DNA of 64,000 nucleotides. It comes from Macrostomum lignano. Lineage: Eukaryota. Both the position numbers and the translations under genes were made by a program. Where the stretch lies: positions 375,693 to 439,692 of the forward strand of contig NIVC01000219.1 of NCBI GenBank assembly GCA_002269645.1, written 5' to 3'. The stretch's first letter is position 1; each line of letters starts with the position of its first letter. Positions 51,791-64,000 of this stretch are shown piece after piece. The notes beneath the pieces were generated by a model, which made no database searches, was not told the DNA's origin, and saw only the letters and a program-made list of their open reading frames with translations.

Positions 51791-52183
51791 TTGACTCCAC
51801 GCCAGTCTGCTGATCGCACGAAGTTTTGCTGGTGTGATGTCAGTGTGTTTGCTGGGTGAGTCTTAAAACTCGAAAGTGTAAAATCGTTTCTTTATCCGTT
51901 CTGCCTCATCCATTTAAACTCATAATTTTGGCCAAATGTGCAAATGTGCAGACTTGAACAAATGTTGACGGGATGCTGTGCATCAAATTTAAAGAAACGT
52001 CGTGACTTGAAACGAACAATACGGAAGGCAACAATTCAGACCGGGTTAGTTGAGTATGATTAAAGCAGACAAGTACTCGTAGTACACAAAGTGTAAAACA
52101 ACAAAAGAGTACACAGAGTCCAAGCAAGGGAAGGCAGGTGGAAAGACAACAGAACTTTGCTTGGAAAGTAGTGTATTAGCTAC

Positions 52184-52360
52184 AGTAGTAGGAGTTATGT
52201 GCACTCTGCCGCAGGAATTTCCGTGGGAAAACCACGGGCCTATAGTGTGTAAACATAGCGCCTATGTAAATGCATAGGTGGACTCTGCCGCAGGGAAAGC
52301 CATGGAAAAGCCATGGGGGCCACATCGGGTGGGCATGGGGGCCCGGTGAGATAAAAAAGC
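52184..52360 (+). repeat. Candidate left terminal inverted repeat of the Polinton
   Basis: Starts AGTAGTAG; GC-rich with direct repeats CTCTGCCGCAGG and hairpin CCGTGG-gaaaa-CCACGG; partner end not in the window. Confidence 0.3.
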
Positions 52361-52399
52361 GCATGCTGGTATATGTACTGAAGGAAACTCATTATTGCA

Positions 52400-52430
52400 C
52401 CCACCCGACTCCGCCTAGAAAGTATATAAG
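52400..52430 (+). promoter_or_regulatory. Candidate Pol II promoter (GC boxes CCACCC/CTCCGCC plus TATATAAG at 52423) for the PC4-like gene
   Basis: TATA element 72 nt upstream of the ATG at 52495. Confidence 0.55.
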
Positions 52431-52494
52431 ATGGGCGATTTTTTGAGATTGGCTTCATGACGAAAGGAATTTTTGAGCATCTTTCATCTCATTA

Positions 52495-53232
52495 ATGGAT
52501 CTCTGTGACGGCTTCAAAGTCCAAGTGCAAGAGTACGAGGGTCATCGCTTTATTGCAATCCGACGTTTCTTCTCCTCTGAAAGCGGGCTCAGAGCGGGCA
52601 TCCCTGGCTTTAACCTCAATACATACCAATGGGAGAAGTTGAAGCAGCTGAAACGCCAGCTTGTGCACTCGGCAGTCAATCGGCACAACGTCACAGTCAA
52701 GCTTGGCTTTGATAAACTCGTTGTGGTCAGCAGGGGTATCATCTGGCTGAAGCGCCTGCCGGAAGACTGTACAGAGGATTATCTGCGGCGGAACTCAGTG
52801 GCGCTGACTCCCCGTCTCTGGAAGTCTCTGGAAGAACTCTGGAAGAAGGCCGAGTGGATCGACAACGAGCTGCGAGAGAAGTCGGCGGAGAGTGAGTATC
52901 AGCTGGAGGCCGAGGACATCAAGCATGAGGGCCAAGAAACTCTGCCGGTCAGCGAAGAAGAAGAAGAAGAGGAGAAGAGGCTGCGCATCGTCGAGTCGGA
53001 CAATGCAACCAGCTCGCCTGTTCTGCCAGAGACTTCAGTCGGGCGCATACCGCAGCAAGACAGCGACCTGTCGCACGACCCACTGTGGTACCGGTTCCGT
53101 GCTGCTTCAGGGCTCGGCAACAGCGGCTGTCACAAACGAAAGCTTCCGTGGCCCCTGCGCAGGCAAAATGCAATCAAGTTGCCCAAAGTGATCAATGGTG
53201 GAGAGGATGGTGACGCAGAAAAAAGTGCTTGA
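52495..53232 (+). CDS. PC4/Sub1-like ssDNA-binding or coactivator protein, probably two tandem PC4 folds plus an acidic tail
   Basis: KVQVQEYEGHRFIAIRRFF...GIPGFNLNTYQWEKL matches the PC4 pattern; second unit ends NSVALTPRLWKSL. Confidence 0.72.
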   Translation: MDLCDGFKVQVQEYEGHRFIAIRRFFSSESGLRAGIPGFNLNTYQWEKLKQLKRQLVHSAVNRHNVTVKLGFDKLVVVSRGIIWLKRLPEDCTEDYLRRNSVALTPRLWKSLEELWKKAEWIDNELREKSAESEYQLEAEDIKHEGQETLPVSEEEEEEEKRLRIVESDNATSSPVLPETSVGRIPQQDSDLSHDPLWYRFRAASGLGNSGCHKRKLPWPLRRQNAIKLPKVINGGEDGDAEKSA

Positions 53233-53455
53233 TAAACTTTTTAAGTGACTATGCATGGACATTGCTATGTCATCTGTATTGATGTCTAACAGTTCTATTT
53301 ATCCAGCTTTTTCAGCTTATTCATTAATGTCCTATTGAATGAGCTCGTTTAAAATTATAAATAAAATAAAATAAACATCTCTCTCTCTATAATTATGTTT
53401 GTTTACTGGTGAACTTAAGAATGCAAAATGAGTTTAATTTTTTCTCTAATTAAAA

Positions 53456-54523
53456 ATGGAAAAGATTTACTTTAACCCTGAGCAGCCAGCAAGCTTTTCT
53501 GGCTGCAATAAATTTATTAATGAAGTTCGCACGCAGGGTATCCGAGTGAGTGAAAAAGCTGCGAAAAACTGGCTTAACGATCAGACAGTCTACACATTAC
53601 ATAAGCCAGCAAGGAGGAATTATCCGAGGGCCCCAATCATAGTTCGAAGCATTGATGACCAATGGGAGTTGGATCTGGTGGAGATGATTCCTTTTTCCAA
53701 GTATAATAACGGCTACAGGTATATTCTAACATGCATTGATGTGCTGTCCAAGTACGGATGGGCGAGGGCATTAAAGAACAAGTATTCTATTGAAGTGAAG
53801 TCGGCATTCGAGAGCATATTAAGAAGTTTAAAGCGGCAACCGCGCACTGTTCGCACTGATCAGGGGAAAGAGTTTATCAACTCTACTTTTCGCCAATGCT
53901 GTATGGAAAGGGGAATCCTGGCATTCCCAACCAACAGTGAGCAGAAGGCGGCTGTTATTGAACGATGGAACCGAACTTTAAAGAGCAAAATGTGGCGCTA
54001 CTTCACCCATAATAGCACTCTGCATTGGCTTGATGTGCTGCCTAAGCTAGTGAAGTCCTACAACAAAACTTACCACAGAAGCATACGAATGGCACCAACG
54101 AATGTCAGCCAGGAGAACGAGTCCGAGGTCTGGATGAGCCTATATGACGGGAAAGCGATTGAAACTGTGGAAAAGCTGGGAAAGCCAAAGTTCAGCGAAA
54201 ACCAGTCTGTGCGGATTTCCAATGCACCCAGGCTTTTTAAAAAAGGGTACAAGGCCAACTGGAGCGAAGAAGTGTACACGGTGATGTCCAGAGCTCCAAA
54301 GCATTATCCCTACATGTACAAGATAAAAGACATGAAAGGAGAAGAGATTCGTGGGCTTTTTCACGAGCATGAACTGCAGGCCGTTCCGGAGTCGCAGCGG
54401 CTGTATGTGATTGAAAAGATTTTGAAGACTGAGAAGCGGCGGGGGAAGATCCGATATCTGGTCAAGTGGGCCGGCTACGACTCCACTGATTGGGTGGATG
54501 AGAAGGACTTAAGAAAAGTGTAA
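53456..54523 (+). CDS. Retroviral-type (rve/DDE) integrase with a C-terminal chromodomain
   Basis: QWELDLVEM, TVRTDQGKEF, IERWNRTLK (D-D-E intact); YVIEKIL...YLVKWAGYD chromodomain. Confidence 0.96.
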   Translation: MEKIYFNPEQPASFSGCNKFINEVRTQGIRVSEKAAKNWLNDQTVYTLHKPARRNYPRAPIIVRSIDDQWELDLVEMIPFSKYNNGYRYILTCIDVLSKYGWARALKNKYSIEVKSAFESILRSLKRQPRTVRTDQGKEFINSTFRQCCMERGILAFPTNSEQKAAVIERWNRTLKSKMWRYFTHNSTLHWLDVLPKLVKSYNKTYHRSIRMAPTNVSQENESEVWMSLYDGKAIETVEKLGKPKFSENQSVRISNAPRLFKKGYKANWSEEVYTVMSRAPKHYPYMYKIKDMKGEEIRGLFHEHELQAVPESQRLYVIEKILKTEKRRGKIRYLVKWAGYDSTDWVDEKDLRKV

Positions 54524-54553
54524 GATGCCGACATTGTGCAGCCATTCCCAATT

Positions 54554-55363
54554 ATGAGAAGCATCATTATTAGCAGCGAAAATGCTGAAGGTACTCCTAC
54601 TGACTTTCATTTTCACCTGCCTTCACCTATTTATTTGGATCGAAATGTGGACTATGAGGCAGGTCTGGCTGAAATCCATCTGCCTGCTGCATGGTTCAAT
54701 GTTGACGAGCCTTACTGCTTCACTGTCTCAGATGGTAGAGAGCATGAGGCCTTGGTTCTTCAACCCGGACGCTTTGCTAGAGTGGAGGAGTTGGTGGAGC
54801 GCATGAATGAGCTGTTGACCAACTCTGAGTCATTGTTCTTCGATGCAATGAGTGATAGGGAGTCTGAACTGGAAGCTGAAGAGTCTGGTTTAACGGGGCG
54901 AAGCAGCACTAGAGATATTGGCATAAAGTTTGAGATCCAAGAATTGAGAACGGTAGTGCTCAACAACACGGCTCGAGCAGAATTATTCCTTCCATCAAGT
55001 AAAATTCTGCAGTGGCTGGGATTCGGAAATCAGTCCGTGAAAATCCCACCTGGGCGCCAAGTTTCCACGTACCGCATTGGCTGCCCGCCCACCAATCTGA
55101 TCAACGTGCATTGTAGCATTGTGGAGTCAACTAATTGCAACGGGAACTCTCTGCTGCGAACTGTGAACATGAATCCTGAAGCCGGATGGGGAAGCTACTG
55201 GAGCAAAGTGTTTAAGAAAACAGTCTTCTTCCCCATTCAGAAAACAAATTTTCTACACAGCCTTCGAGTTCAACTGCGAGACATTTTTGGCTTCTCACTG
55301 ACTGCTCATAGCGGCAGCCCTGTTCTGCTCACAATTCTGATACGTGAGAGACCAATGCAATGA
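54554..55363 (+). CDS. Polinton minor capsid (penton-like) protein
   Basis: SIIISS...TPTDFHFHLPSPIYLD..YEAGLAEI, INVHCSIVE, SLLRTV, LRVQLRD...LTILIR pattern; typical position. Confidence 0.78.
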   Translation: MRSIIISSENAEGTPTDFHFHLPSPIYLDRNVDYEAGLAEIHLPAAWFNVDEPYCFTVSDGREHEALVLQPGRFARVEELVERMNELLTNSESLFFDAMSDRESELEAEESGLTGRSSTRDIGIKFEIQELRTVVLNNTARAELFLPSSKILQWLGFGNQSVKIPPGRQVSTYRIGCPPTNLINVHCSIVESTNCNGNSLLRTVNMNPEAGWGSYWSKVFKKTVFFPIQKTNFLHSLRVQLRDIFGFSLTAHSGSPVLLTILIRERPMQ

Positions 55364-55776
55364 ACTATCAGCAGCTGATTCGGCAGTATTCAGGGACTCG
55401 GACGGGAAATGAAAAGTCCATGCTCTATGGCTGCGGGAGTTTTCCTGGAATAATGACTTACCAGCCTCCTCCAGCACCTTCCATAACATCATCATCATCA
55501 TTAGCATCAAAGCCTGTACAAACCAGCAGTAGCAGCAGAAGCAATCGTACGAGTAATAGAAACATAGGAAATCAAGGACAGGCTAAAAAGGTGAATAAGA
55601 AGCAGGTGCGCATGAAGAAGAAGAAAAAAAGTGGCGAAGCACGCAAAACGAGCAAGGTCAGAACAAGCAAGCAACCTAAGAAAAGAACGACTAAAACACA
55701 GGCCAAGAAAACAGGCAAAAGAAACCAAAAAGTGAGCAAAAATACTGTGAAGCGTGTTCTAGACTCACTCTCATAG
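55360..55776 (+). CDS. Small Lys/Arg-rich protein, putative DNA-condensing core protein
   Basis: Very basic C-terminal half; LYGC-G fits the adenain cleavage consensus; lies between the capsid genes. Confidence 0.6.
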   Translation: MNYQQLIRQYSGTRTGNEKSMLYGCGSFPGIMTYQPPPAPSITSSSSLASKPVQTSSSSRSNRTSNRNIGNQGQAKKVNKKQVRMKKKKKSGEARKTSKVRTSKQPKKRTTKTQAKKTGKRNQKVSKNTVKRVLDSLS

Positions 55777-55778
55777 CA

Positions 55779-57054
55779 ATGGCTTACGGATTCAACCCGA
55801 GACTCGATTTGTTCAAGTCCCCCGTGCTGCAGACTGCTATTGAAAAATCCACATACGTTGATATTCACCCTGTGAACTCTATTGCTACTAACTCACCTAT
55901 TGAATTCGACTGCCATCCATCGGCTGATGAGTACACTGATCTGCTGAGCTCATTCCTGTATATTCGCTGTCGCCTAGTCCGGCTTGGCGGGGCTTTGATG
56001 AGGGAGGAGGTTCGGAATGCCGATGGAGTTGTCACTGAGCGCAGAGACAGTGGGGTGCATCCAGAAAACTTTGTCCTATCTACGGCATTCTCAGATGTAA
56101 TCGTGAGCATCAACCAGCGCATTGTCTCAGGCGGAGACCAGCTCTACCCCTACCATGCCTACCTAAAAGCTCTCATGAGCTCATCCGATGCTCAGCAGTT
56201 AAATTTCTACCCCGCCGGAACCCGAAACTGCTGCTGAGGGGCATGCCGAGAGCCACAGGGAGTCCCGCTGGGTGGAGTATGCGGGACCACTGCTCAGCGA
56301 CATCTTCCAGTGTCCTGTTCTGCTGCTGAACAATTTACACCTGCACATCAAGCTGATGCCCAGCGATGCTGCATTTGCCATCCGAACCCCAGATGAGAAC
56401 AACACAGCCTACCGAATGGAAATCTCCCACTGCATTCTGAACCTGCGCCGAGTCAAAGTGGCGCCTCACATCAGCCTAGCGCATGAGCAGGGACTTACCA
56501 ATCAGAACGCACTTTACCCCATCGAGCGAACCGAAATGCAAAACTTCATTCTACCACAGGGAATTCAGTCAAAAAACATTGAAGGATTCACCCATGGCAA
56601 ACTGCCTAAGTTCGTTATGCTGGTCTTCGTGAACCACCGAGCCTTCAATGGCCATCACCATTCCAGCCCCTTCGAGTTCCAGAGCTTCAACCTCAGCCAG
56701 CTAGCACTAAAGAAAGGTGGTGAAGCCATGTGCCACGCTGCATTTGCACCTGAGAATAATTCATTCGTGAGAGAGTACTTGCACTACCTGAAAAGCTGTC
56801 AGTCTGCCAGCCCTAGCAACTCGGTTCCGTGGGTCCCCTACCAGTTGTTCTCCAACGGCAACACAGCTTTCGCATTCGATCTCACGCCTGAGGGAGCGGC
56901 CCTGTGGTACGGACAGAAGGAGGGCAATTTGCGGCTGGAGATTCGCTTCCGACAGGCCCTGGAGGAGCCTGTATCTCTGATTGTTATGTGCCTGTATGAC
57001 TCACTGATTGAGGTCACCAAGCACAGGGAGATTCTGCTAGATTTTCCATCCTAG
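55779..57054 (+). pseudogene. Double jelly-roll major capsid protein, split by a frameshift near 56220
   Basis: RLDLFKSPVLQT...SPIEF...YTDL, LSDIFQ..LLLNN, HGKLPKFVMLVFV, PFEFQSFNL, FAFDLTP, GNLRLEIRF, LIEVTKHREI; ORFs 55779-56237 and 56272-57054. Confidence 0.9.
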
Positions 57055-57077
57055 GAGTACGCAGGCGCAACGCTAAT

Positions 57078-57617
57078 ATGGATGCTTTTCAACTGCTTAA
57101 ACTGGCTAAAAGCTTTTTGCCACAAAATAATTGTTTAATTATTGTCTTGAATTCAATAAATAAAACATCTTATGCTTTAAACTTTATTCAGCGAGCAACT
57201 CTCAAAAGAAATTTATCTCGATGTAAGTTTATTTTCTTTCTGCTTCCGTACAGCTCGTGATTCGGTCACTGGGTGGTTTGTTATGCTAATAAGGAGAATT
57301 CCATAGAACTCTTTAACTCTCTGGGCTGGGACTCAAGCACTTTAGACATCATTCACGGAGCACTGAAATCCTTTTGGTATTCTCCATTCTACTTACGTAG
57401 CAATGTGAATCGAATTTAGAGCTGCGACTCTGCTAAATGCGGTTTGTTCTGTCTCTTGTTTGTCTATCAAAAGTTTCGTTTCAAGCGCTCGTTTGAGTGG
57501 GTTCTGCGGCACCTCCATGCAAATCAGCAGAGCCACTTGAATGAAAGAATTCTGCAAAGGTTTGAGAGTTGCTTAAGAAAAAGAATTTTAATTAGAATTT
57601 TAAAATCAAGGATTTAG
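57078..57617 (+). pseudogene. Adenain-like cysteine protease with two in-frame stops
   Basis: Manual translation gives ...PYSS*FGHWVVCY...ELFNSLG...RI*SCDSAKCGLFCLLF, with catalytic His, an Asp-to-Asn change, a stop at the oxyanion Gln position and catalytic Cys. Confidence 0.85.
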
Positions 57618-57628
57618 CTCAACAGGCG

Positions 57629-58282
57629 ATGGAAACGCGTGAGCGGATAAACCGTTATGATGTGCGCCTGCGACAGGGAAGCTGCATGATTGTCAGCGGG
57701 CCTACAAATGCAGGAAAGACAACCTTCGTGAAACATCTGATCCAGTACAGGGATGTCATGTTTGATGTGAAGCCAGGGAGAGTTCTGTGGTACTATGGGA
57801 TTTCACAAGCAGCACACTCTGAGCTGAGCAGTCTCGGCGTGCACCTGCAGCAGGGATTTCCCAGCAGTATCGAGACCGCACTGAGACCCAATGACCTGGT
57901 TGGATTTGATGACCTGATTGAAGAAACTTCCAATTCTGCTGCTATGCGAAATGTTTTCACAGGAATTGCCCATCATTTGCCCTGCTTTCTGGTTATGCTG
58001 ACCCAAAATGTATTTTTTAAAGGGAAGGAGTTGAGAACAATGAGTCTGAATGCGATGTACTTTGTGATCATGAAGAACCCCAGAGACCAGCTGCAGATTG
58101 CAGCGCTGGACAGGCAGTGTTTTGCTGAGAAGCCCGGCTTTCTGCTGTCAGTGTTCAAGCACGTGACATCGCACGGCAGGGGAGCCTACCTGCTCCTGGA
58201 TTTTCACCCTTCCACCCCTGATGAGCTGCGCGTCCGGGCTCGAATCCTGCCCAATCATCGACCCCACCTTTTTTACACTTAA
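57629..58282 (+). CDS. Genome-packaging ATPase (A32/FtsK-HerA family)
   Basis: Walker A SGPTNAGKTT, Walker B FDDL, HH...LTQN, RTMSLNAMY, KNPRD. Confidence 0.95.
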   Translation: METRERINRYDVRLRQGSCMIVSGPTNAGKTTFVKHLIQYRDVMFDVKPGRVLWYYGISQAAHSELSSLGVHLQQGFPSSIETALRPNDLVGFDDLIEETSNSAAMRNVFTGIAHHLPCFLVMLTQNVFFKGKELRTMSLNAMYFVIMKNPRDQLQIAALDRQCFAEKPGFLLSVFKHVTSHGRGAYLLLDFHPSTPDELRVRARILPNHRPHLFYT

Positions 58283-58329
58283 GAATAACAGCCGAGATTT
58301 CGCCATTTGTTCTATATTCTGCAACACTA

Positions 58330-58644
58330 ATGAAAATGGAAACATTCGACTCACATGAAAGTTTGTTTGATATTCTCGCCTCACCAAAATATTCCATCAG
58401 CTTTAAACGCTTGTTGATCAGAGCGGGTCCAAAAGCCGTACGTGAATTTCTCATTGAGGCCTGCTACAACCTATTGCAAAACACTTTGTCGTTCTCACTC
58501 ACTGAAAAGGCAGCGCTGGTGAAGCAAAAGCAAATAATCCGCAAAATTTCTACACATCGAAGAACTGCGGATCTGCTAAATACGGGTTTTATCCAAAATT
58601 CTCTACATTCTAATAAAGCTAGTGAAGAAAAAGAAACAAAATGA
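58330..58644 (+). CDS. Conserved small Polinton protein, function unknown
   Basis: KRLLIRAG..VREFLIEACYNLL..LTEKAALVKQKQIIRKI pattern recalled from animal Polintons. Confidence 0.6.
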   Translation: MKMETFDSHESLFDILASPKYSISFKRLLIRAGPKAVREFLIEACYNLLQNTLSFSLTEKAALVKQKQIIRKISTHRRTADLLNTGFIQNSLHSNKASEEKETK

Positions 58645-59363
58645 ATAAGTTCTCAGAAATGGTTCTGATCCCCAAGTCAGAATACGATATGCTCACACAG
58701 AATTTGAAGCCAGTTGAGTCTGAACTCGACACTGCTGTGAGATATGCGCAGAGGAAATGCAATGATATTTTGCTTGCCGAGGATTGCCCAGACGATGTGA
58801 AAGCTGCCATGTACCATGATGCGATGAAGAATTTGCTGGCCAAGCGCAAGCGGACTGGAAAGGATGGTGTGGTAACTGCGAGAGATGCCAAGATGCTGAA
58901 AACTGATATTGCACCAAGCAGCTGGGGGGAAAAGATCACCCAATCCGTGCCGCAGAAGTTTAAAGCGAGAGCCCGCAGTCTATGGGCCATCCTATCTGGC
59001 AATCCCTCTCTGATTCGGGTGTCCGAAAATGGCGAGGCGCAAATTTCTGGGAAGACAATACCCTCCTCAAACATCCTGGATTTGTTTCACAGTGCGGTGA
59101 GGGATTCGAAATGTGCCAGCGAGCCGGTGGGCTGGAGTGAGTTTGTCTCATTGCTTCAAGACAAAAAGCTTTACATCCCAGCTTCGGCTATAGGAAAGTC
59201 AGTAAGGCAGCTAATTTCTAAACCTGCTGTTTCTCCACAGGCCGCCCCTGCTCATCATATAGTTAAGGGATTCGGGAGTGGGAGAGCCTGGCTACAGCTG
59301 ACCAGGAAAAAAAACTATTTAAGAAGGGGAACTGTGTCGGCTTCCCGACATCTGGCATCTTAA
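58641..59363 (+). CDS. Conserved Polinton protein, function unknown
   Basis: VPQKFKARARSL, GEAQISGKTIPSSNILDL, PVGWSEF, IPASAIG pattern; ATGA overlap with the upstream ORF. Confidence 0.65.
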   Translation: MNKFSEMVLIPKSEYDMLTQNLKPVESELDTAVRYAQRKCNDILLAEDCPDDVKAAMYHDAMKNLLAKRKRTGKDGVVTARDAKMLKTDIAPSSWGEKITQSVPQKFKARARSLWAILSGNPSLIRVSENGEAQISGKTIPSSNILDLFHSAVRDSKCASEPVGWSEFVSLLQDKKLYIPASAIGKSVRQLISKPAVSPQAAPAHHIVKGFGSGRAWLQLTRKKNYLRRGTVSASRHLAS

Positions 59364-59375
59364 CACCATCCGATC

Positions 59376-60221
59376 ATGAACTATATTGACTTCCAAGGCT
59401 TCCCACGCGAGAGATCGAGCAGAGATTTCGTTGTGAAGGAGCTGGCCATTGCTCAAGTCCGGGCAGGCAGTTACCATATCACTCATCACGTGTACGCCTC
59501 TCCGTTCTCATGGGAGAGAATCTCACCTGAGATGCAGGTGCATTACAGAAAGCTCTCAAAGAATTTTCATCATTTCAAGTGGACAGATGGATCCCGACCG
59601 TACATGCATTTGGCTAATGACATTCTAAACATTGCTTACGGCCCCACATGGACAAGCGGGGTGAAGAAGTCCATCTTTCTGACTGAGCTGCTTGGCAGAC
59701 AGGTGTACAACTTAGAGGATTTGGGATCACCTTTGATTCAAGCATCTGATACTGGTTGCGCAGTGAAAAATGTATTACTGTACTATAACTGGCTGAAGCC
59801 GAAGTTCTGTATCAACTTAAGAAGCGAGGTGTGCCCGCACCACTCAAAAGCTCGCAAAGACAGCACCACTGACAGAAAGGACTCTCTAAATGAGTACACC
59901 TGCGACAGCCCTGCGAGTGACCAATCTGGTCGGCGGCGTGGATCTGAGACTGGCTGGAGGCAGGGGTGCTCAGTTGCCTCTGCGGGAACTGGCTCTCAGC
60001 ATGGCTCATGTCATCTATCGTCCCGTCTGGCCCCGAGTGCTCATCAAGAGGATGCGGAATCCCAGAGTGACTCTATTGCTCTATCCGACTGGACAACTGA
60101 GTATCTGTGGCGCCCGGAGCTACTCGGCCTCAGTCAGGGCCGCTCGTCGCTTCGTGGCTATGCTGCATCGCAGAGTGCCTGCTCAACTGCTGCCTCGTCA
60201 ATCCATTTGTGTGAGGATTAA
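59376..60221 (+). CDS. DnaQ/DEDD-like 3'-5' exonuclease homolog (recognisable to about residue 140; tail overlaps the TBP ORF)
   Basis: YIDFQGF...FVVKELA, HHFKWTDG, VYNLEDLGSP, CAVKNV..YYNWL. Confidence 0.65.
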   Translation: MNYIDFQGFPRERSSRDFVVKELAIAQVRAGSYHITHHVYASPFSWERISPEMQVHYRKLSKNFHHFKWTDGSRPYMHLANDILNIAYGPTWTSGVKKSIFLTELLGRQVYNLEDLGSPLIQASDTGCAVKNVLLYYNWLKPKFCINLRSEVCPHHSKARKDSTTDRKDSLNEYTCDSPASDQSGRRRGSETGWRQGCSVASAGTGSQHGSCHLSSRLAPSAHQEDAESQSDSIALSDWTTEYLWRPELLGLSQGRSSLRGYAASQSACSTAASSIHLCED

Positions 60222-60456
60222 AACAATTACTGCTCATGGAAAGATCGATTTACGCACTGCTCTTTCCCTCGCAAGCCTTGTAAACGCCCTCCCAAACGCT
60301 CAGTATGAACCCGAGTCATTTTCTGCTTTGATCTGTAAGCTTAGATTCTGTAAATGCATACTTTTTCACAACGGCTCTTTTGTTTTAAGTGGTGCGAAGT
60401 CAATGAACATGTTACAGTATGATTTTTCTCTCCTTCTCAGCATTGTACGCCTGTAA
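59890..60456 (+). CDS. TATA-binding-protein (TBP)-like protein encoded by the Polinton
   Basis: Two TBP half-repeats: VTNLVGGVDL...IKRMRNPRVTLLLYPTGQLSICGARSYSASVRAARRF and ...YEPESFSALICKL...ILFHNGSFVLSGAKS. Intact 188-aa ORF, no introns, no N-terminal extension. Confidence 0.9.
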   Translation: MSTPATALRVTNLVGGVDLRLAGGRGAQLPLRELALSMAHVIYRPVWPRVLIKRMRNPRVTLLLYPTGQLSICGARSYSASVRAARRFVAMLHRRVPAQLLPRQSICVRIKTITAHGKIDLRTALSLASLVNALPNAQYEPESFSALICKLRFCKCILFHNGSFVLSGAKSMNMLQYDFSLLLSIVRL

Positions 60457-60459
60457 AAA

Positions 60460-61080
60460 CTGTTTTTCTCCTTTAAGGTCTGTAATTTAAATAAATATCA
60501 GACACTAAAAGCTGTTTAATCCATTTTAAAATAAGTACAATGAGATGGAGTCTTTTAATTTTCTTCTTTTATTTATCAATCATGAGGAAATAAAATCATT
60601 GCAGAAAGTAATATATAGCAACGAACAAAAAATTACAAGAGGGTGAGATATGAATCCTAAACGCTAAAAATAAAGAGTAAAAAGCAAGTTCGCGAAAAAT
60701 CAACGCACATGATTTGGTATACTGTACGTACTAAAAAATAAGAAACGGCATATTTACTTTTCTGAGCAATAGTTCGTGAGCAGAAAACAAAACACAACCG
60801 AATGCAAAGAACAGATCCAAAGCGACTGCATTTATTAATAGAAAATATGATTAAAATTGAGCAAATTGAAACGCCAGTCTATCTGTAGCACGAGTCGTGA
60901 AAACAAATTAAGTATGGAAGACGCAATCAGTGTCACAAAGCAGAAAGTTATCGTTTGAAGCTAAATGTCATAACTAATTTAGAATTATAATAATTTGTAA
61001 AATAATTGTGTAATTCCCGCATATAATGAGCAACCCTGACGCTACGATCACTTCTAATGCTCCTTAAAAACAGTCGTCAT
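60460..61080. terminator. AT-rich convergent termination/polyadenylation region between the plus-strand gene cluster and pPolB
   Basis: AATAAA-like signals on both strands (e.g. ~60490 plus, ~60568 minus). Confidence 0.45.
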
Positions 61081-61084
61081 ATAA

Positions 61085-64000
61085 CTAAAGCTGCAACTTT
61101 CGCTGCTTTGACCTGTCATCGGGTTTGCATACCGGCTGGCATTCTTCATCTAGAAGGCGCTGCTGCTCCTGTAGCTGCAAAAGTCGAAAGTGTCCAAAAG
61201 GAAGGCTTGAGTTGGGTCCTATCCAGGCTCTTTTGTCTTCCCAGATGCTTAGAGCCAACTTCTGTTGCTCGAGCGTGAACAATCTGTGGTTGATGCTACC
61301 GATGCGGCGAACAGTAAGTGATAGCTGAGTTGAGTCCCTGTAAACTCGCAGGTAGTCTTCGTGGCTCAAATTCCGCTTGACAACGCACGCTTGAATGCCT
61401 TTCGCCTTCTTTTTGTCAGTTGATGACTGCTTCGTTAGGAATGAGTACAACTTGGGCCGCAGCAGAATCCACTCTTCATTTTGTACACCAGCCGACTCAT
61501 CCTTAATGCAGCCCAGCTTTGCTTTTAAGCGATCGGAGTGAAGTAAATCGTCCTTGGGGAAGTTGGACGTGTCTAGAAGATCATGGGCAATCATTAAAGG
61601 CAGGGCATCCTTCCGAACGTCAATGTTTTCCAAGCAAAGAAACAACAAATCGGTGTCCCCGCCACAAACTCGAACACGCCCACCATCACGCTCCAGCAAT
61701 GGCTTCAGCTTGTCATACAGCAGCTCGTACATCACGATCTTTGATAGGTCAAGTACGCATTGCCCTATTGGAATAGGTCGATCCAGAGTCACTTGAGCCT
61801 TCTGTAGCTCAAATATGCTAAGGCTGTCAGTAATGATTGTAAATGACTTTAAATTAGGATTGGCAGCAAAGATTCTGGCCTTGTTGGTAGAATTGATAAT
61901 TCTAATGTCTCGTCTTTTGCGTACGTTCTCCATTGTCTTGCCAAAGAGACTGTTGTTCTTTAATTTATAGAAATCCTTTTCAAATTCATTTTCAGCCTTC
62001 GATCGCTTGTCACTATTCTTGGCGATATATGCGGCAAAAACTGGCTCTTGGTAGAACTCAATCATCGTGTGCACCTTGATCAGCTTCAAGCCATGTGCCA
62101 GATAGAACTTTAGCGCGGAAGAGTGCAACACATAAGCCATTTTGTTGTGACAGGTAAGGAGCAGTTTCTCAGAACCACGATATTCTTCACAATTACTTAA
62201 CTCGGAAAGCTCATGCTCCTCCTGCTGCTGATGTTCACGATGTTTTTGATGCAGCACATTCCAAAGCTGCTTCATGTGTGGCGGAAAGTCGTCAAATCTG
62301 GCTTTCCGTTTTTCGGGCGCGAACGGCAGATCTGCGGTACCATCATGAATTGTGGTTGGATAGTAAAGGTCGGCCTCAACGAGATAACCAACGGGTCCAT
62401 TTTCATTCAAGCCCAAAAATCTCTCTTCCGTCCAGCTGTTAACTTCTCCCTCACTAAGCCAACGGAAGCCTTTGACTGGGAGTGGCATTGTGAGAGCGTG
62501 GCCATAGAGATTGTTTGCGTCTACTGCTAGCAAACTTTTGGTTGGTTGACGATTAGCCGCTTCAGTGCTTTCAGCCATACTTGCCTGCACATGATGAATG
62601 TTGACAAAGCACATGCCACCACGAATGCCTCTCTCAAAGGTTCGATACATTTTGTTGTCGCTCAAAAGCTGAATGCCATTGCCACAAAGTGACTTAAGGG
62701 CGGAAGCGAATGAAAGCCCAGGTGTTGATACAAAATGGGCCGGATCCAGTCCATCTTCTCGGAGGCTGAGCCGGCGGAAATTCTCAAAAATATCCGCAAG
62801 TTGACGGATATCCAACTCAAGGTAGCAGAGCATATAATGACGCAAGTTAACCGCATCGAATTCGCGCCATGCTTTTTGAGCATGCTCATACTCTGCTAGG
62901 CTACATTCACAGTTGTTCAATCGATTGAAAAATTGCTCTCGCTAGGCAGTTGCGTATCACTGAGTACATGACTACCAGAAAGATAGTCGTACGGGAATAC
63001 TCCCTTTGAAAAAAGGACTTCATTGCTTACGTTTGGGAAATGCTCACGCATTCGAGCTGTCACTACGCATTCATCTTTCGGCAAAGTTGCAATTAGTTGT
63101 GCAATGCTACTGTGTAGAAACTGCAAGCTGTCGATAAACTGAAGTGTGAAGTTTAGTGGCCTCATCTTACCATCCTTTTCAAATTCATCGATTTTGAACT
63201 CAACCCGCATTGATAGGTATGCCTCGGCTGCTTGCGGGATGATGCTGATTTTCCAGCCAGGCATATCCCCAAGGGCGGTTGAGAAGATGAGGTGCAGATC
63301 ATAGCCACGCAAGTTGTGTAGAACAACTGGTAGAAAGCGGCGCTTTAGTCTGGCGAGTTTGTTGCATGAACTGCAGGCAGCACCACGGAACGCACCAGTC
63401 AAGTGATCGTGGTCCCAGTGCTTCTCACTAGAAGAGAAAATTCTTTCTTCACAATAGTGGCAGCAAACAGACTCATTAAATTTTCTAATGTCTGATTCAT
63501 GTTTAACGGCTGGCTTGTGACTGAACTCCTTGTTCCAGTCATAAATTTTTCGAGCCAGCTGCTCCAGAGAAATCAAAAATTCCTTGACGCATGCGTGTGC
63601 ATCAGAACTGCAAAACAGAGCTACATCCTCGCAAGGCCTACGCAACTGGCTAATTCCCTCTCGGGAGATTGTGATGTAGCCTGCAGCAGCTGGCACGTGC
63701 TCTGTTAGCTTGGTGATTGATGGTGTATTATCTATACAGCAGTAGTTGGAACGTTCAGTGCTTCAAAGTCGGCGTAGACGACAAAAGGAGGGCTCAGTGT
63801 CTTCTCCCAGGACTTGAAGCGCAGGAAGCAACTTTCTGGCTCAGGCATAATCTCTTTGATGGAGATCGAATCTTGGAGATTGCAATGCACTTGGTGTGAT
63901 TGTAAGATCTTTTTCGGTTCGAAAATTACTCAAGCATCGTTCACACACCTTCTTTCGATTTCGAAAACCTCCTTTGGCTGTTGAACAACCGATCGAGGCT
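61085..64000 (-). pseudogene. Protein-primed family B DNA polymerase with C2H2 finger, exonuclease and endonuclease VII-like insertion; several frameshifts; N-terminus beyond the window
   Basis: CERCLSNF..H..HC, VYADFEAL, CHYC..DHDHLTGAFRGAACSSCN, KGVFPYDY, DANNLYG, KLKNNSLFGKT, GDTD, KKKAKGI, EDKR; frameshifts near 62920, 63735, 63900 and 63960. Confidence 0.95.

Follow-up and report, generated by a model that had tools for sequence, protein, structure and literature searches.

The window analysed here (64,000 nucleotides of Macrostomum lignano contig NIVC01000219.1, positions 375,693 to 439,692 of the forward strand) stops at the contig end inside a Polinton, of which window positions 52184-64000 are the left 11.8 kb. 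This element carries a gene for a TATA-binding protein (TBP) of its own and a gene for a PC4-like protein, and a short box, YHTAAGAA, precedes most of the genes of its cassette. The presence of this box before most cassette genes, alongside an element-encoded TBP, is what is new here. The sequences suggest a two-step programme of transcription, in which host TBP would serve the genes at the ends of the element and the element TBP would then act on YHTAAGAA with the TFIIB and RNA polymerase II (Pol II) of the host, the PC4-like protein being engaged in replication. We regard the chances for and against this programme as evenly balanced.

In the first step, host TBP and Pol II would transcribe inward from both ends, starting at canonical TATA boxes. 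Transcription from the left would yield the PC4-like protein, and transcription from the right the product of a terminal Cys/His-rich gene along with a probably spliced protein-primed DNA polymerase B (pPolB). In the second step, the element TBP, with its remodelled DNA face, would bind the variant box, and its preserved glutamate pair would recruit host TFIIB. The integrase, capsid and packaging genes, as well as the gene of the TBP itself, would be turned on in this manner.

Promoter boxes and the TBP of the element

The box was searched for as [CT][ACT]TAAGAA (consensus YHTAAGAA) and mostly reads CTTAAGAA. Seven of the ten cassette genes in the window have it 30-110 nt upstream. In the form CTTAAGAA, it lies 42 nt before the ATG of the integrase (53414-53421), 46 nt before that of the putative minor capsid protein (54508-54515), 57 nt before that of the packaging ATPase (57572-57579), 52 nt before ORF104 (58278-58285) and 74 nt before the ATG of TBP (59816-59823). 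The variant TTTAAGAA is found 149 nt before the ATG of a basic protein (55211-55218), at the same place in 9/9 elements compared, and again, within TATTTAAGAA, 58 nt before the ATG of an exonuclease-like gene (59318-59325), where the other of two core types has TATATAAGAA. Another variant, CCTAAGAA, stands 104 nt before the putative major capsid ATG (55675-55682); a second lineage of elements in the same genome has CATAAGAA at 107 nt. All these boxes are on the plus strand. The TBP box recurs in all nine elements at 65-83 nt. The integrase box recurs in eight, being kept although several of the nine upstream regions look unrelated. By upstream k-mer counts, TAAGAA precedes 8 of 11 genes in at least six of the nine elements.

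The signal of CTTAAGAA lies in position and strand rather than in total count. Its five copies in the window are all on the plus strand and 42-74 nt before five cassette starts, and the plain count over the window falls short of significance (5 found, 2.35 expected; 7 of 100 shuffles). Across the nine cassettes, the pattern has 71 forward and 3 reverse matches; 62 of them have a start 30-110 nt downstream, and of the other forward matches nearly all belong to the basic gene, at 148-149 nt from its start. Since the pattern was derived from the same data, the best-shared upstream k-mer was compared with random window sets. The observed sharing was reached by 0-1 of 5,000 sets for the window and by none of 5,000 for the element L159, in which one start had been placed 5 nt off. 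Per kb, the box occurs 1.1 times in the cassettes, 0.089 times in host DNA (24 matches over 269 kb of strand) and 0.018 times in the seven right arms analysed (2 matches). Near starts, Leu-Arg pairs are written TTA-AGA, a coding seldom used elsewhere (Fisher p 0.003-0.035, four elements). When the fixed pattern was applied to a lineage-2 copy (L173), four forward and no reverse matches were obtained, all four before the starts of the integrase, capsid, ORF104 and exonuclease genes. The box is conserved in both lineages.

The genes at the ends of the element belong to a different class. A canonical TATA box, TATATAAG, stands before the PC4-like gene (52423-52430, plus strand), and in 9/9 elements a TATA-type box, and no YHTAAGAA, precedes both this gene and the one at the terminus of the pPolB arm, these being plain counts. 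The exonuclease-like gene is preceded by a hybrid box, TATTTAAGAA or TATATAAGAA, in eight of the nine elements, and in lineage 2 a canonical TATAAAAG lies before TBP.

The TBP gene (59890-60456, plus strand) encodes a divergent, two-lobed bare core of 188 aa (Pfam E 4e-23). Its likeness to cellular TBP lies in the YEPE motif of the C-lobe and in the complete two-lobed saddle of the model (pLDDT 95.4; TM 0.83 to human TBP), the alignment behind which consists for the most part of ordinary TBPs. Its identity to the host's own TBP and TRF2-like proteins amounts to 26-28%, and a quick tree places it in a clade of 11 sequences (SH-aLRT 95) apart from host TBP and TRF2. On these two results a recent capture from the host was rejected; the quick tree, with its long branches, does not single out a donor. 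The host genome's own TBP, TRF2-like and PC4 genes gave three matches each. Members of the clade from outside this genome are JGI, ENA and Logan entries (P0009, P0040, P0157-P0160) on short contigs. Scans of IMG/VR gave no match, whether run with the TBP alignment, the ATPase or an alignment of the ATPase, and a metagenome scan gave 14 weak loci, of which the two examined contain ordinary TBPs.

On a residue map of eight clade sequences, in what we take to be yeast TBP numbering, the equivalents of N69, E186, E188, F190 and F207 are kept in all eight, while those of F99, F116, V122, T124, Q158, N159 and V161 are changed in all eight. The F99 equivalent has become Pro or His, beside a Trp in six sequences, and the F116 equivalent has become Tyr. 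Of the residues for reading a canonical TATA box, two of the four intercalating Phe and one of the two central Asn are thus kept. A Phe-to-Tyr change at the universal position where this clade has Tyr alters TATA binding, and the two C-lobe glutamates bind TFIIB, according to the available part of PMC7221094. This pair corresponds to E140 and E142 of the element TBP and is kept in 8/8 clade sequences. No TFIIB was found by Pfam among the element's frames. Because residues of the DNA face are changed and the TFIIB glutamates are kept, we infer that the element TBP has an altered DNA specificity and works with host TFIIB. The pairwise dN/dS is about 0.24 for TBP (142 pairs) and 0.34 for PC4 (22 pairs), with lower values for the capsid gene (0.07) and the integrase (0.08); the pairs are not independent. 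The ratio for TBP indicates purifying selection.

Genome copies, the PC4-like protein and rival readings

TBP and PC4 each occur in more than 130 loci of the genome, plus the second lineage, in searches that scored the best 150 of 230 (TBP) and 281 (PC4) candidates. A search of sequencing runs listed 20 of 24 as containing the stretch, none of these being an RNA run on record. For pairing in lineage 1, to which the window's element belongs, split fragments were merged, six lineage-2 PC4 rows were dropped, and a PC4 counted if it lay no more than 17 kb upstream of TBP and on its strand. Among the matches listed, 82 of 135 TBP loci were paired with an upstream PC4, 16 had no contig room and 37 were unpaired, some of the last probably owing to matches outside those listed rather than to a true absence. 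In lineage 2, PC4 lies within 2.5 kb of TBP in 34 of 37 TBP loci. A preliminary description of this DNA had looked to the co-occurrence of the two genes across related elements, and within this one genome such co-occurrence was found.

Gene order in seven further mapped elements is identical to that of the window. Lineage 2 differs in gene order, with PC4 adjacent and head-on to TBP, and is 37% (TBP), 28% (PC4) and 45% (ATPase) identical to lineage 1. The lineage-2 copies read (L165, L166, L167 and L173) have only the start of pPolB, and L167 and L173 also have a partial integrase; L165 and L166 are two short copies lying head to head. Many lineage-2 TBP and PC4 matches are stop-free.

In the nine elements, the segment from the minor capsid gene through the first half of TBP forms a block of two near-identical core types, while PC4, the integrase, the second half of TBP and pPolB each vary independently. 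The boundary of exchange, between the shared core and a variable right arm, lies inside the TBP gene near codon 110. Within a core type, the first halves of TBP are 94-99% alike and the second halves 55-76%; all second halves keep the YEPE and FH motifs despite this divergence.

The PC4-like gene (52495-53232, plus strand) encodes a protein of 245 aa with a tandem PC4/PUR fold (residues 1-125) and an acidic tail. Its Pfam PC4 match (E 3e-5, 23.7 bits) is just below the cut-off of 25, and relatives in the genome are above it. In the model (pLDDT 84.5), two PC4-like repeats lie in a single chain. Among solved structures, Pur-alpha matches best (Z 10.2, rmsd 4.0, 116 residues); human PC4 (Z 6.6; rmsd 1.4 A over 63 residues for the first repeat) and the phage T5 homologue each match one repeat. 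With PC4/Sub1, Pur-alpha and the phage T5 homologue (PMC7549692, available part) the protein shares the PC4-like fold that binds single-stranded DNA (ssDNA). It has two repeats per chain like Pur-alpha, unlike PC4/Sub1, which is a homodimer of single repeats; the host PC4 is single-repeat. Three outside relatives, all on short contigs, have the tandem PC4 as well. Leads for the protein in the ESM Atlas were all under 0.9. Its top viral match, in BFVD, is MOSUB of a Branchiostoma lancelet adintovirus (E 1.5e-4, TM 0.73); since this match is an annotated protein, a gene of this type is by itself no novelty in the virus group. In the favoured reading, its product would be an early, single-chain ssDNA-binding protein, most likely for strand-displacement replication.

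In the preliminary description, PC4 and TBP had been taken as one transcription-control module, and this view was not supported. The two genes lie in differing promoter classes and reassort independently (Spearman 0.38 and 0.19 for PC4 against the two TBP halves, nine elements), so that a co-adapted PC4-TBP pair is not supported. The wider proposal, that the element steers host Pol II with an early/late split, is supported by the two promoter classes, the purifying selection on TBP and the retained TFIIB glutamates.

Several points weigh against the two-step programme. The lineage-1 TBP gene itself lies behind the box, and the switch therefore needs a starter, for which the hybrid TATA/box before the overlapping exonuclease-like gene would be a candidate. 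As the nine elements represent only two core types, they are not nine independent tests; the independent material consists of two core types and one distant lineage, and the box survey took in TBP-bearing Polintons. The random-set test was weaker for L173 (8 and 16 of 5,000 for 6- and 7-mers, nothing for 8-mers), where some starts had been located from the box and one of seven is non-ATG. The protease gene and ORF240, each of which lies directly 3' of a boxed gene, have no box. Among PDB titles are complexes of wild-type TBP with boxes changed at one place, T(-30) and G(-26) for example, and host TBP may therefore read some versions of the box. A box 34-35 nt from the ATG gives a very short leader, and the TAAG core is the late motif of baculoviruses. 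Lastly, PC4 does not vary with pPolB among the nine elements (Spearman -0.16).

A low probability is given to the same TBP-driven switch with the PC4-like protein as an early coactivator, which would melt promoters or stabilise the preinitiation complex. Its acidic tail is in keeping with such a role, early expression would fit, and both genes are kept, and mostly paired among the matches listed, in two lineages of differing gene order, in one of which they are adjacent. However, PC4 variants that are 60-75% alike pair with near-identical N-terminal halves of TBP, MOSUB appears in published maps of animal adintoviruses whose legible text shows no TBP label, and the phage T5 homologue is linked to replication (PMC7549692, available part).

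It is also unlikely, in our estimate, that the box has another reader, either a host factor or a late RNA polymerase that a large DNA virus, acting as helper, would direct to a TAAG-type initiator, and that TBP has a different job. Virophages use the promoters of their helper virus, the core of the box is TAAG, and a distance of 34-110 nt to the ATG is as suitable for an initiator as for a TATA box. If a box 34-35 nt away is read as TATA, the leader shrinks to about 5 nt, and inspection of the sequences downstream of the boxes revealed no clear common initiator at about 30 nt. Yet the conserved unit YHTAAGAA exceeds TAAG and grades into TATATAAGAA, and the box and the same TBP substitutions are common to both lineages; no helper virus was seen, though no search for one was made. 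A very small probability attaches to a decoy TBP that sequesters host TFIIB or other TBP partners, the box then being an RNA-processing signal at gene junctions. The boxes do lie near gene ends, two of the four intercalating Phe positions are kept, and the C-terminal half with the TFIIB contact keeps its motifs while varying (55-76% in DNA). However, several boxes lie inside the upstream coding frame, about 100 nt (basic gene) and 400 nt (exonuclease gene) before its stop, separate canonical AATAAA signals follow PC4 and TBP, and the sequence 3' of the boxes is purine-rich and not a pyrimidine tract.

The Polinton and the remainder of its cassette

The element is a Polinton by its terminal inverted repeats (TIRs), target-site duplication, pPolB, integrase and protease. 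Its ends are AGTAGT, with the left terminus at 52184. The left TIR (52184-52335, plus strand) starts with AGTAGT and is 96% identical over 159 nt to the right end, which was located in L037 on contig C393. The 6-mer AGCTAC precedes the left terminus (52178-52183, plus strand) and recurs, identical, at the right-end flank. Such a 6-bp target-site duplication is a feature of Polintons/Mavericks, as are AG...CT ends, and it was found in six of seven other elements with both ends located. The pPolB is above the cut-off of PF03175, the integrase matches PF00665 (E 6e-12), and the adenain-like protease is above the cut-off of PF00770 in a sister copy, the window copy being broken. Arithmetic on the coordinates of the window and C393 gives a length of about 16.4 kb. 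The right TIR that the preliminary description had wished to see recovered is thus at hand, and both PC4 and TBP lie inside the TIRs, the former because its start at 52495 follows the left terminus.

From about window position 56,000 on, contig C393 and the window are 100% identical, and before that point 97-98%. The left and right ends of C393 (L037, L038) differ in terminus and flank, and the contig is therefore probably chimeric or recombinant, a misassembly or a recombination being likely. PC4 and integrase genes that are 98% identical were seen in elements (the window's, L004, L009 and L157) with differing termini and 63% identical pPolB; in a comparison of window 52184-52335 with L004, L009 and L157, both termini within each element match. 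The termini may travel with the polymerase arm. The sequence GTAAACA, presumably a forkhead-type site, occurs in the window TIR (52249) and before the terminal gene in several elements (L037 2373 and 2943; L015 7445-7479), and is absent from the window's 52 kb of host DNA.

Frames and Pfam matches bear out the described order of eleven plus-strand frames opposite a minus-strand pPolB. After the PC4-like gene comes the integrase (53456-54523), with an rve domain and a chromodomain (Chromo E 3e-5). It is followed by a putative minor capsid protein of 269 aa (54554-55363), named from position and size alone, a basic, Lys/Arg-rich putative core protein of 138 aa (55360-55776), named from its sequence and conserved in position, and a putative major capsid gene (55779-57054), named from position, size and motifs. 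Next are the adenain-type protease gene (57078-57600, end approximate; Peptidase_C5 E 4e-5 on the L004 copy) and a P-loop packaging ATPase of 217 aa (57629-58282). ORF104 (58330-58644, 104 aa) has no family and is conserved in all nine elements and lineage 2. ORF240 (58641-59363, 240 aa), also conserved, has no full box, no match in the ESM Atlas and a start that overlaps the stop of ORF104. The exonuclease-like gene (59376-60221) precedes TBP. On the minus strand, the contig end cuts the pPolB gene (61085-64000; DNA_pol_B_2 E 1e-13). The window copy is defective, with the major capsid in two frames, stops in the protease and a change of frame in pPolB near 62,900.

The names given earlier to these genes stand on Pfam for the integrase, TBP and pPolB. 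For the submitted capsid, minor-capsid, core and exonuclease proteins, searches of Pfam, NCBIfam, PHROGs and PDB gave no family, no sequence match to double or single jelly-roll capsid proteins among them, and the labels come from position, size and motifs. The ATPase has a Walker A motif and may be of the A32/FtsK type, its matches in Pfam, NCBIfam and PHROGs being weak and of a generic P-loop kind. The exonuclease-like protein, which we take to be DEDD/MAEL-like, has D-x-Q instead of D-x-E in four of four lineage-1 sequences. The final 110 codons of its gene share DNA with the TBP gene (window 59890-60221), read in a different frame, and are stop-free in 12 of 13 distinct frames, for which the chance in one sequence is about 0.024; dual coding is possible.

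The terminal gene upstream of pPolB (L037 3078-4562) has a Cys/His-rich N-terminus, a long Pro/Ala/acidic repeat and an acidic segment, and has no useful Pfam family. It lies where PMC8502044, in its available part, puts 'Oncoid' genes, and is a candidate early activator. In L037 (5926-6154), the pPolB frame is open for 76 codons before its first ATG and begins at a pyrimidine tract ending in CAG, and several elements have similar extensions free of ATG. Transcripts for pPolB may start at the promoter of the terminal gene and be spliced. In the host part of the window, which is rich in tandem-repeat arrays, a broken reverse-transcriptase/GIY-YIG remnant (48094-49790), presumably Penelope-like, resembles one beside the right end in L037, and a 966-codon open frame (39993-42893, minus strand) holds a long LHQDPN(K/Q) heptad repeat.

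Relation to known systems

With the Polintons, Mavericks and adintoviruses of Starrett et al. 2021 (PMC8502044), the element has pPolB, the rve integrase, the ATPase, the protease and TIRs in common. As far as that paper is available, MOSUB, MAEL and SSDBP are labels in its Supplementary Fig. S2, TBP is listed in the figure legend on MELD viruses in the section on non-animal eukaryotes, and neither PC4 nor MOSUB occurs in the main text, where TBP is a legend label only. Term searches and the sections consulted yielded no promoter box or transcription programme. No Polinton TBP-promoter system was found among the top-ranked literature, and annotations may exist in subscription papers, Repbase, figures and supplements. 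Term searches of the accessible text of PMC11131425, 10.64898/2026.10.13.758929 and 10.64898/2026.06.19.733378 found no TBP or PC4. The PC4 of PMC11662393, in the part available, is unrelated to the PC4-like gene.

The two-lobed saddle is common to the element TBP, cellular TBP and TRF2, and the TBPs of nucleocytoviruses. Most viral TBPs have diverged at the TFIIB contacts and bring a TFIIB of their own (PMC7221094, available part), whereas the element TBP keeps these contacts. A close parallel is with beta- and gamma-herpesviruses (ORF24/BcRF1/UL87 and TATT), which likewise have a viral TBP-like protein, a variant late box, canonical early TATA boxes and host Pol II (PMC4893493 and PMC7498053, available parts). 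There, six viral proteins take part, and the viral TBP binds Pol II via an extra N-terminal domain. In contrast, the element has a bare TBP core in place of a CTD-binding N-terminal domain, retained TFIIB glutamates and the box YHTAAGAA instead of TATT, with no partners identified. By analogy, the element TBP may work like the herpesvirus system without being a member of it.

Thus, an even chance is given to a one-protein orthogonal promoter system, in which a captured TBP with a re-tuned DNA face and a box of its own would work with host TFIIB and Pol II in a 16-kb integrating animal DNA virus. If true, the system would be a pared-down equivalent of the six-protein late complex of herpesviruses, and it would offer a natural case of a TBP-DNA pair re-specified while still relying on host TFIIB, with a bearing on the ways in which TATA specificity can shift. 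It provides a concrete test system, made up of a single small protein, a box of 8 nt and two classes of promoter, in more than 100 genome copies in a laboratory flatworm. The finding bears on how Polintons control their genes and on whether a real viral cycle runs in them; if true, Polintons would have a regulated early/late cycle, as in true viruses.

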